DNA of 64,000 nucleotides from Sphyrna mokarran (Eukaryota), in assembly GCA_024679065.1 (NCBI GenBank), contig JAGIQG010000023.1, positions 24,366,001-24,430,000 on the forward strand, in the 5' to 3' direction. A model generated the notes under the pieces. It saw only the letters and a program-made list of their open reading frames with translations. It searched no databases and was not told where the DNA came from. The position numbers and the translations under genes are program-made. This document shows positions 3,049 to 55,793 of the stretch, piece after piece (the stretch's first letter is position 1; the number at the start of each line of letters is the position of its first letter).

Positions 3049-3378
3049 GGGCAGCATAGTGGCCTGTTGTCTCACAGCTCCAGGGACCCGGTTTGATTCC
3101 TGGCTTGGGTCACTGTCTGTGTGGAATCTGCATGTTCTCCCTGTGTCTGCCTGGGTTTCCTCTGGATGCTCCAGTTTCCTCCCACTGTCCAAGCTGTGTG
3201 GGTTAGGTTGATTGGCCATGCTAAATTGCCCCTTAGTGTCCCGGGATGTGTATGTTAGAGGGATTAGTAGGTAAATATGTGGCTTTCAGGGGATAAGGCC
3301 TGGATGGGATTGTAGTTGGTGCAAACTTGATGGACCAAATGGCCTCCATCTGCACTGTAGAGATTCTATGAATATGAT
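3049..3378 (+). mobile_element. HE1 V-SINE with CR1-derived (type A) tail
   Basis: tRNA-like head gggcagcatagtgg...ggtttgattcc, V-domain, and tail gatggaccaaatggcctccatctgcactgtagagattctatg matching the CR1 3' ends in this window. Confidence 0.92.
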
Positions 3379-12289: not shown

Positions 12290-12635
12290 TCATAGAACTT
12301 CCAGAATGCAGATGAGGCCATTCAGCCCACTGAGTCTGCACTGACTCTCTGGCAAAGTGTTGTAGCCAGGCTGTCTCCTTCACCCTTCACAGTTACAATG
12401 GCTAATCCATCTAACCTACACATCTTGGGACACAAAGGAGTAATTTAGCATGGCCAATCAACCTAATCTGCACATCTTTGAACTGTGAGAGGAAACCAGA
12501 GCACCTGAAGGAAATTCATGCAGACACAAAGGGAACGTGCAAACTCCACATAGACAATCACCCAATGCTGGAATTGAACCTGGGTCCCTGGCACTGTGAG
12601 GTAGCAGTGCTAACCACTATGCCACTATGCCACAC
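12290..12635 (-). mobile_element. HE1 V-SINE, type A tail
   Basis: catagaa...gcagatgaggccattcagccc...tttagcatggccaatcaacctaa...gcagtgctaaccact. Confidence 0.88.
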
Positions 12636-29345: not shown

Positions 29346-30650
29346 CCTTGTTTTCTCATTTTTTTAAGTTGTATCTCCAATATTATATAACTTCTTTGTC
29401 ATTGAACTACCATCTAATCTCTCGTATTTTCTCTGACATAGTCTGTTATTGAATAAGTGCGCAGCCCTAAGGCACTGCTGTATCAGTGAAACTAAGTCTC
29501 CTTAACCTTAGTTCCCTGTTTTTCACACATTTCTCCTTATCTTTAAGTTGTATCATCTATATATTTACAACTTCATCATTAAATTATCGTTTAAGTCTTT
29601 TATTTTCTTACTTGGTCTGCTTAACAAATAAATGTGTGGCATTCTGGCACTGCTGTCTCAGCAAAACTAAGTCTCCTTACCTTACTTTCCTGTTTAACTT
29701 AAGTGTCTAATCAGCGTGCCCTTCGGGGACCTGCTGCGTGTGGGTAATGTCTTTTCCTTTACCTTCATCGCAGTCTTTCATTTTACCTTAGTACCCACAA
29801 GGGGTCTGGATGTTTAATGGATCCAGCAATTCAGAATGGGCAGCCTCCCTCTCCACTAAAAAAGTGAGCAAACTTTAATTAAAAATATACGCTCACCCTA
29901 TATAGAAATGCGCTCACTCGATCATCAGCTCCAAATTATCCAGGGCTAAATTGTTGTGAGATTTCTTCCAAGTGGCCTAATTAATGTAAGGACTAAATCT
30001 CTTCATTAAACATTTCATTTCTCGAGACTAGAAAAGTTTATTCTGTTCAATTAAATCCTTCAATTAAACTAGTTTTTACTAAAAGCATTGAAATGTTAGG
30101 ATAAAAAAAATTATAAAATTAAAATATTAAAAAAAATACAAACATGCAATTAAGACAAGACAAATCTCATTTTGGCTGAAAGGGAGATCTCTAGTTTCGC
30201 CTACACAGCAAATGCGCTATCAAGCTTTCTCAAAAGATTTCCGTTTCCATGCCAAAAAGTAGAACAGTTACACTTTTTGATATCAGATTACACAGCCTAG
30301 TTCTTAATTAAAATCAATTTTATTCACTCACAGTCCTGTCAATCTAACATATGCACGTCCTTCATTCAATTATAGTTTTAAATACAGATTTGTTATTCGC
30401 TAATTCTTACTGATTGCATCTGTGCCTCATTAAAAATGGCTTCTTATTGTTATGTGGCATGAGGCATTATCTTCTATTGTGAGTTAGTTTTTTTTTCTAG
30501 TTTAAACTCATTTCCTTACATTTGATATTGACCTGCTGTCAGGTGGTCATACCAGGATATGATGTAGAAATGCCAGCGTTGGACTGGGGTAAACACAGTA
30601 AGAAGTCTGACAACATCAGGTTTAAATCCAACCGATTTATTTGATAGTAA

Positions 30651-30690
30651 ACTCACAAGCTTTCGAACCTCTGGTCTTCGTCAGGTGAAT
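30651..30690 (-). ncRNA. Minimal type I hammerhead ribozyme, intact core
   Basis: Reverse complement ATTCAC CTGACGA AGACC aga GGTTC GAAA gc T T GTGAGT: CUGANGA and GAAA cores, 6-bp stem I (one GU), short stem II, palindromic AAGCUU stem III, predicted cleavage after CUU. Confidence 0.8.
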
Positions 30691-30720
30691 GAGGTGTTCT
30701 GTTTGAGACCAGAATACCTC

Positions 30721-30756
30721 ATTCACCTGACGAAGACACAAGAGTCGAAAGCTCGC
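30721..30756 (+). ncRNA. Minimal type I hammerhead ribozyme, intact core, weakened stem I
   Basis: ATTCAC CTGACGA a GAC acaaga GTC GAAA gc T C g. The 3' strand of stem I is eroded. Confidence 0.72.
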
Positions 30757-31380
30757 TTTTTTACTATCAAATAAATCGGTTGGATTATAAATTGGTGTTG
30801 CTAAATTCTTACTGATTTTACAGTAACAACTCCCTGAAACAAACAACTCCCATCATCTTATGCACTGTTCAAGGAACTCATTGTTTTGTAATTGCTGTTA
30901 TCAGTTAGTTATGCTCAGAGCTGTTCAGAATGGTTATCCAGCCTCACTTCTTATCAGGCAGGAAGAATAAAGATGTTAAACAGTTCTGCAGTTCAGCAGC
31001 ATGATGGCCATTTTCAAACCCATATTGCCTGGCTCTCAAAAAGTCTGGTAGAAACGAGGGTCAGGATTTAGGCCTCAGGAGATCTGGCCTAACCAAAAGT
31101 TCGTTAACTCTCAGCTGGACCAGACAACCCTGACGGTGGGCAGAGGTGGAATATCCCACCCAAGTTCCTTTTCAGAATACTTGAGCTTAGCTCAGCAAAA
31201 TTTTAAGAATTGGTCTATTTGTGCAGGCTTTAAATGTCTCAGTGAATGCTTAGATTTTCTCGACTTTTAAGATTTTGATCAAATTAAAGCAAACCTATGT
31301 TATTGAGGTTGCACTATACGGATAAGGGAGATGGCATGAATTCTTCCAATCTTTTTGCAGTTATCCAACTCAGCTTTAGG

Positions 31381-37336: not shown

Positions 37337-37713
37337 TACAGTAAGAAGTCTCACAACACCAGGTTAAACTCCAATAGGTTTATTTAGTATTAGCTGTCAC
37401 AGCAATGTCCCTTCATCTGTTGAGTTTGACATCATCAATTATTCCTAATCATATTCTTTAGTATGGATACCAAACAAAATGTGCAGGACAAGATATTCTA
37501 GAAGAAAATATTAACAATTTATAAGATGGGAAATTATACTCAAACCAATACCTATTTATTAAATAAGTCTTTCCAATTATTGCACGCACCTGATGAAGGA
37601 GCAGTGCTCTGAAAGCTTGTGATACCAAATAAACCTGTTGGACTTTAACCTGGTGTTATGAGACTTCTTACTGTGTCCATTTTAGTCCAACACCAGCATC
37701 TCCACATCATGGC
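37337..37713 (+). mobile_element. Penelope-pLTR inverted-arm cassette enclosing captured local DNA; 11-bp TSD
   Basis: Arms at 37338-37425 and 37587-37674, plus tail to 37713. Perfect TSD TACAATTATGA at 37326-37336 and 37714-37724. Interior 37431-37580 matches 38585-38734. Confidence 0.9.
37587..37621 (+). ncRNA. Minimal type I hammerhead ribozyme, intact core
   Basis: CAC CTGATGA a GGAGC agt GCTCT GAAA gc T T GTG: intact core, 5-bp stem II (one GU), palindromic AAGCUU, 3-bp stem I. Confidence 0.82.
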
Positions 37714-37726
37714 TACAATTATGACA

Positions 37727-38050
37727 GGCATGGCATTGTGGTACAATGGTTAGCATTGCTGCTTCACAACACCAAGGTCTTGGGTTTGATTCCTGGCTTG
37801 GTCACTATATAGAGTTTTCACATTCTCCCCATGACTGCGAGAGTTTCCTCCATGTGCTCCGGCTTCCTCCCACAGTCTAAAGGTGTACAGGTTAGGTGAA
37901 TTGGCCATGCTTAATTGCTCCTTAACGTCAGAGAGACTAGTTAGGGTAATTGGATAGGGTTATGGGGATATGATCTGGGTAGGATTTTGGTCGGTGCAGA
38001 CTTGATGGGCCAAATGATCTCCTTCTGCACTGGAGGGATTCCATGATTCA
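37727..38050 (+). mobile_element. HE1 V-SINE, type A tail
   Basis: gtggtacaatggttagcattgctgcttcac...gtcggtgcagacttgatgggccaaatgatctccttctgcactggagggattccatgatt. Confidence 0.9.
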
Positions 38051-38922
38051 ATGACAGGATCTATTTGCTTTACGTGATATTCACTTCTTAAGGATTTTGC
38101 AGCCATTGAATGTCTTTTCATTATAGTGTTCAATTGATTTATCTTGTGGGGCTTGAAGGGATGGATTGTCTGGAGTGTCTTATTAAATTCAAAATTCATT
38201 GATGCTTGATCCACAAGATACTTTCTGTTGATGTTTTGGCATAAAGGTTGTCGAGTGCAAAATAAGATTGTCATTTTATATTGACCTCAACTTTACAGTA
38301 AGATTGACAGGAGAATCCTCATACCCACAATATCCCCCACCACTTGCCTCAAGTGAAACAGTTCCCTGCTCTCCATATACAATAAAGCCTTCTGAACCAA
38401 AGTCGGTGAATTTGATGACATACAAATCTGCAATCTGATCCCAAGATCTTGATTTCAGAAAGCAAAGATCTCAGAAAGCAGCATGCTGAGGAAAGAATTT
38501 ACACTTAAAATGCGTTCACACTTCTGTTAACATAACAAGCGAAGATACATTGTATGAATGTATTAGTGTTCATTCGCTGTTGCTATCATCAACTATTCCT
38601 CATCACATTCTTTAGCTTGGACACTAAACAAAATGTGAAGGACAAGATATGCTAGGAGAAAATATTAACAATTTATAAAAAGGAAAATTATTCCCAAATT
38701 AATACCTATTTAGTAAATAAATCATACCAGCTATAACACCGCAAGTACTTAGTCACAATAAATACAACATTTGGAATGTTTGTTATGGACAATCTATTCT
38801 TCCTCATTCATACTAAACATTCACTTCACAGTGCATATATATTACTTAGTTTAAAATCACTGAGTACTTCAATCTTTATGGCAGAAAAGAACACTGAATT
38901 ACTAGAGGTATGTACACAATAT

Positions 38923-45641: not shown

Positions 45642-45861
45642 TAGTAATAAGTCTCACAACACCCAACAGGTTTACTTGGAACAGGTTTATTTGGTAGCAT
45701 AAGCCACAAGCTTTCGGAGTGTTACTCCTTTATCAGGTGAGTGCTTATGAGTGCTGAAAGCATGTGGCTTGTGTTACCAAATAAACCTGTTGGACTTTAA
45801 TCTGGTGTTGTGAGATTTCTTACTGTGCCCAGCCCAGTCCAACACCAGCACTTCCACCTCA
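45642..45861. mobile_element. Palindromic Penelope-pLTR cassette; 12-bp TSD
   Basis: Inverted arms, tail on the right. TSD tgttggtatgaa (45630-45641) / tgttggtgtgaa (45862-45873). Minus-strand motif cactcac CTGATAA a GGAGT aac ACTCC GAAA gctt gtgg with G8 mutated. Confidence 0.88.
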
Positions 45862-45889
45862 TGTTGGTGTGAAGTCAGGCTATGTTTAG

Positions 45890-46137
45890 TACCATGAAAA
45901 TTTCTGTTTCCTGCCTCAACTCTTTGCTGCTTCTTTCTAACTGTTCAGATGTGGAGGTGCCAGCATTGGACTGGGGTCAAAAACCTGTTGGACTTTATCC
46001 TGATGTTGTGAGACTTTTTACTGTGTTCATCCAGCATACAGATGCTCATGGCCGATTCCAGCGTTAGTTTTTTCTTATGAAGGAGCAGCTTGCGGATAAC
46101 TTCACTATGGACCCCACACACAGTATGACCTCTCACA
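45890..46137 (-). mobile_element. Gypsy gag-like remnant split by a 76-bp Penelope mini-insert
   Basis: VCGVHSEVIRKLLLHKKKLTLESAMSICMLDE | QLERSSKELRQETEI reads through once 45948-46023 and one TSD copy are removed. Confidence 0.65.
45948..46023. mobile_element. Minimal Penelope-derived insert (tail plus opposite arm end, no hammerhead); 6-bp TSD
   Basis: gatgtggaggtgccagcattggactgggg joined to aaacctgttggactt...ttactg. TSD tgttca at 45942-45947 and 46024-46029. Confidence 0.8.
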
Positions 46138-47688: not shown

Positions 47689-49530
47689 GGGCACAATTTT
47701 ACCAACAAGTTGCACCCGTTTTCAGACGCGAAAACTTGGTAAAGTTGGACATAAGACAAGTGGCACGATCCGTGCCTGCCTCCACGCCCATTCCTCTTTT
47801 ATGAAGGCCAGAAATGGACGCAATCAATACTGCGTTCAAAACAGGTACTAAGTTGGAAATTTAGATGTATTGGAATTCATTTAAATTGACCTAATGGCTG
47901 GACACTCCAATTTTGCCAGTACTTCCCCCTTTACCACCGCATTCATTAATCAGGAATCAGCATGAATCGGACATGTTCCATAAAAGTCTGATTCGGGCAC
48001 TCCATCAATGAGAGTTAGTGAGGAGGTAAGCGCATAGTGTCCAATGGCTCTCTGTTACTCACAGGCGTCCTCTTGTTGTGGTCATTTTCTATCTCAAGTT
48101 GGTGGCAGGAGTGGGGGGCAATGGGGAGCTGTTGCTCTACAGGGTCTCCATTATCCAACTTACAGCACAGACCTGGGTCTTAGCACTGACCTCGGGTCTT
48201 GCTGTGCTGCTGGGTCCTCGTGCACTCAGCTCACTTCCAGCTGAAGGGTATTCACAAAGCCTTTGCGAATTGCATTGCTGCAGCCTCTCTGCAAGGAGCT
48301 GTGATTGTGGGGAGCATGCGGCTGGGGGAGTTAGGGAGGGAGCCTGTGCTTCGTCTCCCTATCCTCTCCCTCCCCTTCAGATTGACAACATGGTTTTTTC
48401 AATGCAACTGATAGATCTAGCTGTTCTTTAAGTTGCTGCTGGAGCTGAGGAGGAGGAGCAGGAGGAAGAACTGTGGACACAGGAGGCCCAAGCTTTACCA
48501 CGTGCAAGCTAGAGGGAAACAAGAGGCAGGAGGTGGCCATCATTGACCCAAAAGGGGGGAGAAGGGAGCAGACACCACAGCAGTTCCGTGCGTGACTATC
48601 CTTTGAGCAGATGTTGGACACCATGTGCCACCAACATCTGACGCTGAAAGGAGATCGTGCAACACCTGTGCAATTTCTTGCAGGATCTGGCACCTAGAGG
48701 CAGGGTGGGGTGAGCTCCACATGCATACTGACACTTTGACCCATGTCTGTGTAGCGTGTAAGGGATCTGAAACCCCCAAACAGGACCTTGGGTCGGGATA
48801 GGAGGGAATCACTCATGAGGTCTGGGGAACCAATGGCTTCCCTTTCTCAGTGAGGGGCCTCCCCAACTGATATCAACATGAAGCATTCCTCCAGCAATCA
48901 TCAATGGAAGAGGATTCATTGTCCAAACAAATTAGTCACACGTAGATGTTGAAAAAACATTTATTTACAATAAAATGTTGTAGCATAAAATCTTGTGCAC
49001 AGAAAACATTAAGTTGCTTAAATATCTTACTAACTAGTGCAGCCCTCCCAATGCAACTACAACTTCCTAACCTTATATGGTCTACCACTATGTCACAGTG
49101 ACTTCCCAGAATGTACATCGGAGGTGAAGGGGGACAGCTGCCTACCATGACCTGTGACTTGTGATGTGTGTGGCAGGCTTTCTCTGGATGTCCTGGTCTG
49201 CTTCCAGGTGTCTGGGATGTTTCCATGATAGCCTTTTCACCCTGCTGACCCTGAAATGCGGCAGTTTCAGGAAGATGAGAATCAGAAGATGTAGCCAAAG
49301 CCACAGTCTCAATGGGTTCAAGCCCTTCCTCCCACCTTGGGGTTCCTGTGGGCCTCTGGGTCACTCCATGGGACAGTGTTGCTTCTGCAGTGAGCTCCAG
49401 AAGTTCTGGTGTCAACTGGCACTGCCAGTCTTGGAGGCCCACCTGCGTCCTACCCATGGTGGTCAGCCCTCTGCGATAACCATTTGAGTTGGGGGCTACC
49501 TCTCAATGGCCACAGCAAGTGCCTTCTGAG
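47689..49530. mobile_element. Second Harbinger copy, opposite orientation to 7522..11612, truncated
   Basis: TIR gggcacaatttt at 47689. + strand transposase N-terminus at 48389-48720 (LSFEQMLDTMCHQHL...IVQHLCNFLQDLAPRG). The - strand ORF 48936..49457 (LLELTAEATLSHG) is homologous to 9025..9273 (LLELTPAALLSNG), with minus-strand AATAAA near 48960. Confidence 0.7.
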
Positions 49531-49534
49531 ATTT

Positions 49535-50223
49535 ATCCCTGAAAGTAGGCAGTCAAGTGGATAAAGTTGTTAAGAAGGCATATGGAGTCTTAGCTTTTAT
49601 TGGTAGGGGGATTGAATTTAGGAGCCGCAGCATCATGTTGCAACTGTACAAAACTCTAGTGCGGCCGCACTTGGAGTATTGTGTGCAGTTCTGGTCCCCA
49701 CATTATAAGAAAGATGTGGAGGCATTGGAGAGGGTACAGAGGAGGTTTACCAGGATGTTGCCTGGTATGGAGGGCAGGTCCTATGAAGAGAGGTTGAAGG
49801 ATTTGAGGTTGTTTTCGTTAGAAAGGAGGCGGCTAAGAGGGGATCTTATTGAAGCATATAAGATGATTAGAGGTTTAGATAGGGTGGACAGTGATAGCCT
49901 TTTTCCTAGGATGGAGAAAGCTAGCACGAGGGGACACAGCTTTAAATTAAGGGGTATGAGTTATAGGACGGATATCAGAGGTAGGTTCTTTACTCAAAGA
50001 GTGATTAGGGAGTGGAATGCCCTGCCTGCAGCTGTTGTAGATGCGCCAAGTTTGGTGGCGTTTAAGAGGTTAATTGATAAGTATATGGAAGAGAAGGGAA
50101 TGGTTTAGTTTGGAGGGGCATTGCTTTTTATTTTGGTCGGCACAACATCGAAGGCCGAAGGGCCTGTTCTGTGCTGTAATGTTCTATGTTCTATGTTCTA
50201 TGTTCTATGTTCTATGTTCTATG
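49535..50223 (+). mobile_element. Young 5'-truncated CR1 LINE with intact C-terminal ORF and (TTCTATG)6 tail
   Basis: ORF 49557..50108 (183 aa) is open to its natural stop and nearly identical to the 24820..25881 protein. Tail at 50182-50223. Confidence 0.97.
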
Positions 50224-55199: not shown

Positions 55200-55793
55200 T
55201 AAAGTTGTCTACCTGATACACTGTAGGAAAGGATGTTCTGAGGCATGATACATTGGGGAGACCATGCAGATGAATGAACACTGCTTGACAATCACTAGCC
55301 AAGATTATTCTTTTCCTGTTGGGGGATACTTCAGCGGTCACAGGCATGCGGCCTCTGATCTTTGGGTGAGCTTTGTCCAAGGCAACCTTCACAATACACG
55401 ACAGCGCACAGTCGCTGAGCAGAGACTGATAGCCAAGTTCTGCACACATGAGGACAGCCTCAACCGGAATCTTGGGTTCATGTCACCCTATCTGTAACCC
55501 CCATGATTTCCCTAGGCTTCCAAAATCTCACTAACTGTCCTGTCTGGAGACAATAGACATCTCTTTAAACTGTGCTTAACCCTCTCTCCACTCACATTGT
55601 CTGAGATTTGATTACCTGTAAAGACTCGAATTCCAACATTATTTTGTAAATTGGGTTTGTGTCTTTATATGCCTTGTTTGTGAACAGGACTCCAACTTGC
55701 CTAACATAGGAACAGCAAGCGCTGTGAAAGCTAGTGGCTTTTGCTACAAAATAAACCTGTTGGATTTTAACCTGGTGTTATGAGACTTTTTAT
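55200..55793 (+). mobile_element. Penelope-like element 3' fragment (GIY-YIG plus pLTR), no inverted arm; 8-bp TSD
   Basis: VVYLIHCRKGCSEA*YIGETMQ..MNEH..AEQRLIAKFCTHEDSLNRNLGFM. The pLTR matches 18482-18790 reversed. TSD taagagac at 55192-55199 and 55794-55801. Hammerhead core decayed near 55700-55736. Confidence 0.9.

Follow-up and report, generated by a model that had tools for sequence, protein, structure and literature searches.

A palindrome in a shark genome as a probable head-to-head insertion of two truncated Penelope-like 3' ends

The Locus and Its Surroundings

The window, that is, the whole 64,000-nt stretch of shark DNA that was analysed, has a CpG observed/expected ratio of 0.25 and contains LINE-type RT frames and many interspersed repeats; Pfam, applied to the 104 window frames of at least 80 aa, returned only two RT matches and one weak ALKBH8_N match. 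Two pieces of a LINE-type RT element (24617-25917 and 49530-50198) lie in opposite orientation and are 92% identical over 676 nt, with a 365-aa frame (RVT_1, E 1.5e-23). SINE-like interspersed repeats of about 300 nt, with many copies at 70-80% identity, occur across the window, for example at 3051-3370, 12307-12632, 14523-14806, 22870-23203, and 37733-38041. The palindrome considered here sits in or beside an old low-copy repeat (29972-30540), whose paralogous contigs, seen in four runs, are about 80-90% alike. Contig evidence throughout derives from public runs, the assembled contigs of four of the 20 listed runs having been aligned to the window and the best rows used; for run X1 (DNA of the window organism), 55,852 contigs aligned.

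The palindrome is an inverted repeat with arms at 30589-30701 and 30710-30821 flanking an 8-nt loop (30702-30709). Its fold is real, with an MFE of -140.3 kcal/mol (z = -17.2) and none of 200 shuffles equally stable; the perfection attributed to it by the original prediction is not, as the arms match in 91 of 113 columns (80.5%), with 21 mismatches (eight of them transitions) and one gap. This identity is no higher than that of the old inverted pairs A (114/136) and B (74/90) elsewhere in the window. The open reading frame list holds no frame of at least 80 aa over the palindromic element, in agreement with the earlier statement that coding sequence is absent.

The two sides of the structure are unequal. 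The left arm (30596-30701, minus strand) is a 5'-truncated 3' end, or pLTR, that is 75-78% identical to copies A and B in alignments of 130-147 nt, and it extends 37 nt further, to 30559, as an unpaired one-sided tail of the Penelope-like element (30559-30595, minus strand) that lacks a partner in the right arm and aligns with the tails of copies A, B, and C. The right arm (30702-30814, plus strand) is a second 5'-truncated 3' end, tail-less like the corresponding ends of A, B, and C; its probable end lies near 30814, complementarity continues past this point to 30821, and a contig of organism C aligns only rightwards from 30813. At the centre, the loop and the surrounding 8 bp constitute a hairpin of the element's own sequence (30694-30717, plus strand; -7.6 kcal/mol), as seen in the alignment with sister copies; homologous, weaker hairpins (-3.4 to -4.8 kcal/mol) occur in the left and right arms of A and in D. 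By its orientation, the loop is part of the right, tail-less arm. A further, 5-bp micro-hairpin (30748-30759, plus strand) takes the place of a stem I strand in the right-arm type and, at the joint 30651>30748 (depth 244.5), is the centre of a shorter palindrome present elsewhere at multi-copy depth, if the palindrome is rebuilt on the assumption of a direct join.

Family Identity and Sister Insertions

The window contains further insertions of the same family. Insertion A (18446-19198) comprises an endonuclease C-terminus and a 3' end on the minus strand followed by an inverted 3' end on the plus strand, with its tail on the left and a 13-bp target duplication; B (37339-37710) and C (45643-45863) are inverted pairs with the tail on the right and target duplications of 14 and 13 bp, respectively. 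Copy D (55249-55792, plus strand) encodes an 82-aa endonuclease C-terminus followed by a 3' end with a decayed hammerhead, and copy E (45948-46030) has the same 3' end. Copy E is itself a very short inverted pair of the family: part of the tail is kept at only one of its two ends, the opposite end is tail-less, and the pair may be flanked by an 8-bp target duplication.

Inverted, 5'-truncated copies in head-to-head arrangement are thus found at the palindrome and at A, B, and C, and the tail is one-sided in all four of these clear pairs (37 nt at the palindrome, where a tail of 30-40 bp was looked for). Three of the four (A, B, and C) have target duplications of 13-14 bp, with two mismatches each; the palindrome shows no such duplication in the 30 nt next to either end. 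A candidate duplication at 30402-30415 and 30804-30817 was set aside, as paralogous contigs of the old repeat run unbroken across 30415. In B, the spacer between the arms (37412-37588) is a copy of 38568-38743, about 1.15 kb downstream (85.5% identity over 145 nt), and apparently represents host DNA from close by that became trapped between the two arms.

The end of an endonuclease frame lies upstream of the common 3' end in both A and D. The 82-aa frame of D aligns with residues 796-880 of an 881-aa RT-domain protein (54% identity, E 5.5e-15), which itself matches RVT_1 (E 3.8e-10) and has a CX4CxxC linker; a cut-off of E 0.001 gave 58 relatives for the frame. Pfam gave no match on the 82-aa frame itself or on homologue P0001, and GIY-YIG was detected below the curated cut-off in two other homologues of the frame; Atlas matches are mostly unnamed eukaryotic clusters, one of which bears GIY-YIG on 15% of its members and serves as a lead only. 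In homologue P0009, a CX2-5CxxC linker can be discerned by eye between RT and EN, and the window copies stop short of the linker region. Judged from the sequences of sister copies A and D, the family is an EN+ Penelope-like element with an RT plus C-terminal GIY-YIG architecture, probably of the Neptune type. The two named close homologues of a window frame come from Mustelus asterias and Rhincodon typus. Three predicted proteins (P0005, P0017, and P0020) fuse a Penelope endonuclease end to a FAM210B or 7TM receptor domain; these fusions are probably gene-model read-through into insertions.

A truncated Penelope insertion, which the original prediction had kept as its fallback, is the best reading of the locus.

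Hammerhead Motifs

Pattern matching and manual inspection identified an intact CUGACGA...GAAA core on each strand, at 30661-30684 (minus) and 30727-30750 (plus), and both arms possess the core (CUGANGA...GAAA), a stem II, a palindromic remnant of helix III, and an NUH site. The left motif (30651-30690, minus strand; core 30684-30661) is, by pattern and folding, a complete minimal type I hammerhead with a 6-bp stem I, a bulged 4-bp stem II, and a self-complementary AGCU that replaces helix III; its cut site is predicted between 30657 and 30656. The right motif (core 30727-30750, plus strand) has a 3-bp stem II and pairs at one of the first five stem I positions, whereas a stem I of 4-5 bp or more was looked for; it is predicted to be dead through loss of stem I, with the core and stem II alone intact. 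Of the proposed one ribozyme per strand, therefore, a core in each strand holds, and a second complete motif does not. Rfam reported no hammerhead at the locus, whether at the gathering score (0 hits) or at E up to 10, where its five weak matches were unrelated and none fell at the palindrome.

Modelling of read-through RNA places the hammerhead fold above the optimum by 49.8 kcal/mol on the minus strand and by 42.1 kcal/mol on the plus strand, compared with 4.7 and 7.1 kcal/mol, respectively, in the isolated arms. Whichever strand is transcribed, the antisense arm would be made first and would capture the hammerhead motif. Cleavage at the locus is accordingly predicted to be very unlikely, because there is one motif per strand without a tandem partner, because the right stem I is lost, and because the antisense arm would sequester what remains; the hammerheads would be passengers of the pLTR. 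The suggestion that the locus is a retrozyme-like unit, self-cleaving and productive of circular RNA, can draw on two intact catalytic cores and a complete minimal hammerhead on the left, but it is highly improbable: no tandem array exists at the locus, each strand bears a single motif, and the energetic cost of the ribozyme fold amounts to 42-50 kcal/mol relative to the hairpin. Minimal hammerheads, moreover, need dimers and cut poorly according to the accessible part of one study (PMC4209133), or alternatively need the element's protein according to that of another (PMC11167929). Lacking a tandem partner, the locus also falls outside the retrozyme definition as given in the part of bioRxiv 10.64898/2026.07.22.740005 that was available.

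The palindrome is most likely inert, and read-through would yield a long, imperfect hairpin RNA. An endo-siRNA source is possible in principle, and the very stable fold-back on both strands, together with long identical blocks between the arms (the two longest runs sum to 49 nt), would suit a functional hairpin RNA, endo-siRNA or miRNA-like, that might silence the Penelope family. Such a function is nonetheless improbable, given that the right arm is absent beside the orthologous flank in organism C, that similar palindromes arise constantly in the Penelope-like family, and that no host exon with a Pfam domain is found among the 104 window frames of at least 80 aa. Run X3 (guessed to be RNA) gave no cover over the unique right flank, an observation that is not evidence on expression.

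Subfamily, Arm Types, and Age of the Insertion

The earlier remark that both arms share variants absent from other copies was borne out, as derived letters common to the two arms and absent from older copies occupy 8 of 94 informative columns. The palindrome retains eight CpGs in 248 nt, versus 0-1 CpG per arm in six of the seven other arms counted, and neither of its arms has lost any of the three CpG sites that are homologous between them; the claimed contrast between CpG retention in the cores and decay in most other copies does not extend to the left arm of copy A, which also holds four CpGs in 173 nt.

The Penelope-like family is very abundant in the window organism, since loose, mutually unlike flanks stand just before 30559-30562 in 1433, 670, 350, and 296 contigs of run X1. 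Expressed as summed contig depth, which is not a copy number, the right arm reaches 1.2 and 2.8 million in X1 and 1.4 and 1.2 thousand in organism C, whereas the family's common end is similarly deep in both (4.7 and 3.2 million, respectively). At 30626, 98% of the depth in organism C carries the older letter, compared with 28% in X1 and 21% in organism B, although this site by itself is a weak marker, copy D also carrying the newer letter. Other loci in the contig data also form palindromes in which each arm carries the shared 27-nt block, and contig loose ends disclose further stem II variants that differ in sequence and keep their pairing. The original prediction of a distinct subfamily is therefore supported: the shared variants characterise an abundant group of copies that has expanded in organisms A and B. 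Its alternative, arm-to-arm gene conversion, becomes unnecessary as a source of the shared letters because the subfamily is abundant and other loci have the block on both sides. Scans for exact patterns gave no stretch in either metagenome or viral contigs.

Within this subfamily, the arms represent two sequence types. Their divergence from each other (about 19%, 21/112) exceeds that of the flank from organism C (41/529; p 1.3e-4), and their mismatches are clustered (p 0.002 and 0.0009, 20,000 shuffles), while those of pairs A and B are not (p 0.23-0.62). Private differences number 18 in the right arm versus three in the left among 94 columns, about four of the 18 lying beyond the right arm's probable end. 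Right-type sequence is present in other contigs: its variant at 30742 appears in 49, 11, and 6 contigs (X1, X2, and X3, respectively), and right-type joints occur also at 30741, 30748, and 30749.

The insertion looks young, judging by CpG retention and by one contig of organism C in which the right flank is matched (the 41 differences in 529 positions noted above) and 764 unlike letters stand before 30813, where the right arm would be; with these letters in place, the contig offered no clean empty site. Near-identical stretches of 17-18 nt (14 nt exact) were also observed at 30399-30415, about 145 nt left of the left end, and at 30800-30817, across the right end. A 14-mer match to 30402-30415 was reached in four of 5000 resampled controls. 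The likeness to 30399-30415 is possibly a templated repair patch or the result of local templating, and part of the right arm's outer divergence could be locus-specific.

Origin of the Inverted Pair

With a probability of roughly 80%, a Penelope-like subfamily (EN+, probably Neptune-type) that has multiplied in the lineage of this shark gave rise to the locus by a recent insertion, made up solely of non-coding 3' ends placed head to head. One of the two 5'-truncated ends begins at a tailed site and the other at a tail-less site, and they meet at the built-in hairpin. To account for this arrangement, we infer that the element's protein would nick both strands and prime two cDNAs, one per start site, that these would be copied from two different sister RNAs, and that the cDNA ends would anneal via the complementary halves of the hairpin. 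This more specific proposal, in which a dimeric Penelope protein starts one cDNA on each strand and the two cDNAs copy different sister RNAs, is tentative, its chances lying between rather less than even and about even. Two templates in a single insertion are suggested because the arms differ in clusters, because CpGs are kept, and because both types occur at other loci; a tail-less arm could not, in addition, have templated the tail of the other arm, and the loop is oriented with the tail-less arm, both of which favour two templates. The proposal also fits the two start sites, the extension of two strands, and the predicted dimer described in the accessible text for the element PAc (PMC11167929).

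The published proposal for such junctions, in the part of PMC3846280 available, is self-priming. Applied here, a fold-back of a single template would have produced identical arms, the right of which would later have acquired clustered changes, either through local switches of template or through gene conversion acting patchily on the hairpin. This would agree with the single mismatch of the built-in hairpin, preserved at 30695/30715, with the concentration of private differences in the right arm, and with right-arm changes that include a perfect micro-hairpin and the 14-nt exact match to 30402-30415. It remains doubtful, however: other contigs also carry right-type sequence, another palindrome of multi-copy depth is centred on it, and the CpGs have not decayed. 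Moreover, a fold-back that began in the tail-less arm could not have produced the tail, and in a fold-back of the tailed arm the loop would point the other way.

The whole palindrome (left type, loop, and right type) might instead constitute a non-autonomous mini-element, transcribed as one piece and put back into the genome whole by the Penelope protein; its right hammerhead would have decayed in a master copy. Consistent with unit spread and counted against two templates are the nearly equal summed depths (again not copy numbers) that X1 shows over the left and right stem II loops (about 202 and 209 thousand, respectively), the termination of locus-unique contigs at 30587 and 30791, and an organism B contig (30604-30723, nine differences) that crosses the same centre; both outer ends look common to other loci, and the right type is abundant even though its stem I is dead. 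Unit amplification is nevertheless unlikely. The corresponding loop depths in organism B are unequal (4646 and 521), and the six loose-end positions with the most support in X1 (82 contigs or more each) include none at the right end. Many different centres, furthermore, are found within the same subfamily: X1 yields 10 different "skip" joints among the joints listed (15 of 75), seven of which rebuild as palindromes with stems of at least 8 bp, on the assumption of a direct join, the intervening letters often being not known. The deepest two joints (244.5 and 136.1, single copy being 14-21) are centred on built-in micro-hairpins. The subfamily thus forms palindromes de novo with many centres, some of which recur, and the present centre, as a built-in hairpin, is able to recur independently. 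Since the family sequence itself contains the hairpin that forms the loop, identical spacers elsewhere are no proof of unit amplification, contrary to the reading originally envisaged for them; more generally, repeated identical centres need not imply that a palindrome amplifies as a unit.

Also counted against the two-template proposal are the missing target duplication, the missing empty site, and the resemblance of the right end to 30399-30415. The feature is mostly ordinary, being the stump of a very common shark retrotransposon in a published inverted layout; its one oddity is that each half apparently derives from a different sister copy. Its relevance lies in how Penelope-like elements make inverted copies, a question left open in the accessible text of PMC3846280 and partly addressed in that of PMC11167929. 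A sequence-marked young subfamily with two arm types permits a simple genomic test of one template versus two; if the two-template proposal is true, young mixed-arm palindromes in sharks constitute a natural, countable record that could decide between it and self-priming, and recurrent centres mark built-in micro-hairpins, not unit amplification.

Comparison With Known Systems

A literature search conducted at the level of listings, with supplements, Repbase, and most subscription papers outside its scope, found no paper on Penelope palindromes in sharks or on a two-template Penelope insertion; the comparisons below draw on the accessible portions of the works cited. Minimal hammerheads that occur in pairs, one per strand and separated by 100-700 bp, have been described, with high sequence variability and weak, dimer-dependent cutting (PMC4209133), and the dimer requirement is repeated in a review (PMC6765202). 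The motifs reported here resemble these metazoan minimal type I hammerheads in their conserved core, the extra nucleotide before stem II, the G-C first pair of stem II, the palindromic positions 15.2-16.2, the variable stem II, and the opposite-strand pairing; they differ in that stem II has 3-4 bp, versus 7-8 bp in the Schistosoma families, and in that the right motif is without stem I.

Retrozymes are tandem head-to-tail units with a hammerhead in each, in the same orientation (bioRxiv 10.64898/2026.07.22.740005). The palindrome shares with the non-LTR retrozymes of that report, which it records in one chondrichthyan, a non-coding, pLTR-derived sequence and a type I hammerhead, but its two copies are inverted relative to each other, each strand having a single motif, instead of forming a tandem head-to-tail array.

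The closest layouts are the complex insertions of EN+ Penelope-like elements, for which an adjoining inverted, 5'-truncated copy and a one-sided tail of 30-40 bp have been described (PMC8557442), as have head-to-head repeats with palindromes at the junction, ascribed to self-priming, and some copies without target duplication (PMC3846280); inverted pLTRs and short 3' extensions are likewise mentioned (PMC8969392). Head-to-head arms, a short junction palindrome, a one-sided tail, and a pLTR hammerhead are common to those insertions and the present locus, and the sister insertions in the window add target duplications of 13-14 bp. The palindrome departs from them in that both copies are about 110-140 nt long and non-coding, no target duplication is present, and the arms are of two sequence types.

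Finally, the Anolis Poseidon element PAc has two RT start sites bounding the tail, extends both strands, and has a predicted protein dimer (PMC11167929). It probably belongs to another clade, the best full-length homologue of the element studied here having the CX4CxxC linker described for Neptune. Two RT start sites of the kind used by PAc, which inserts in vitro without a need for hammerhead cutting, would nonetheless explain why one end of the palindrome is tailed and the other is tail-less.
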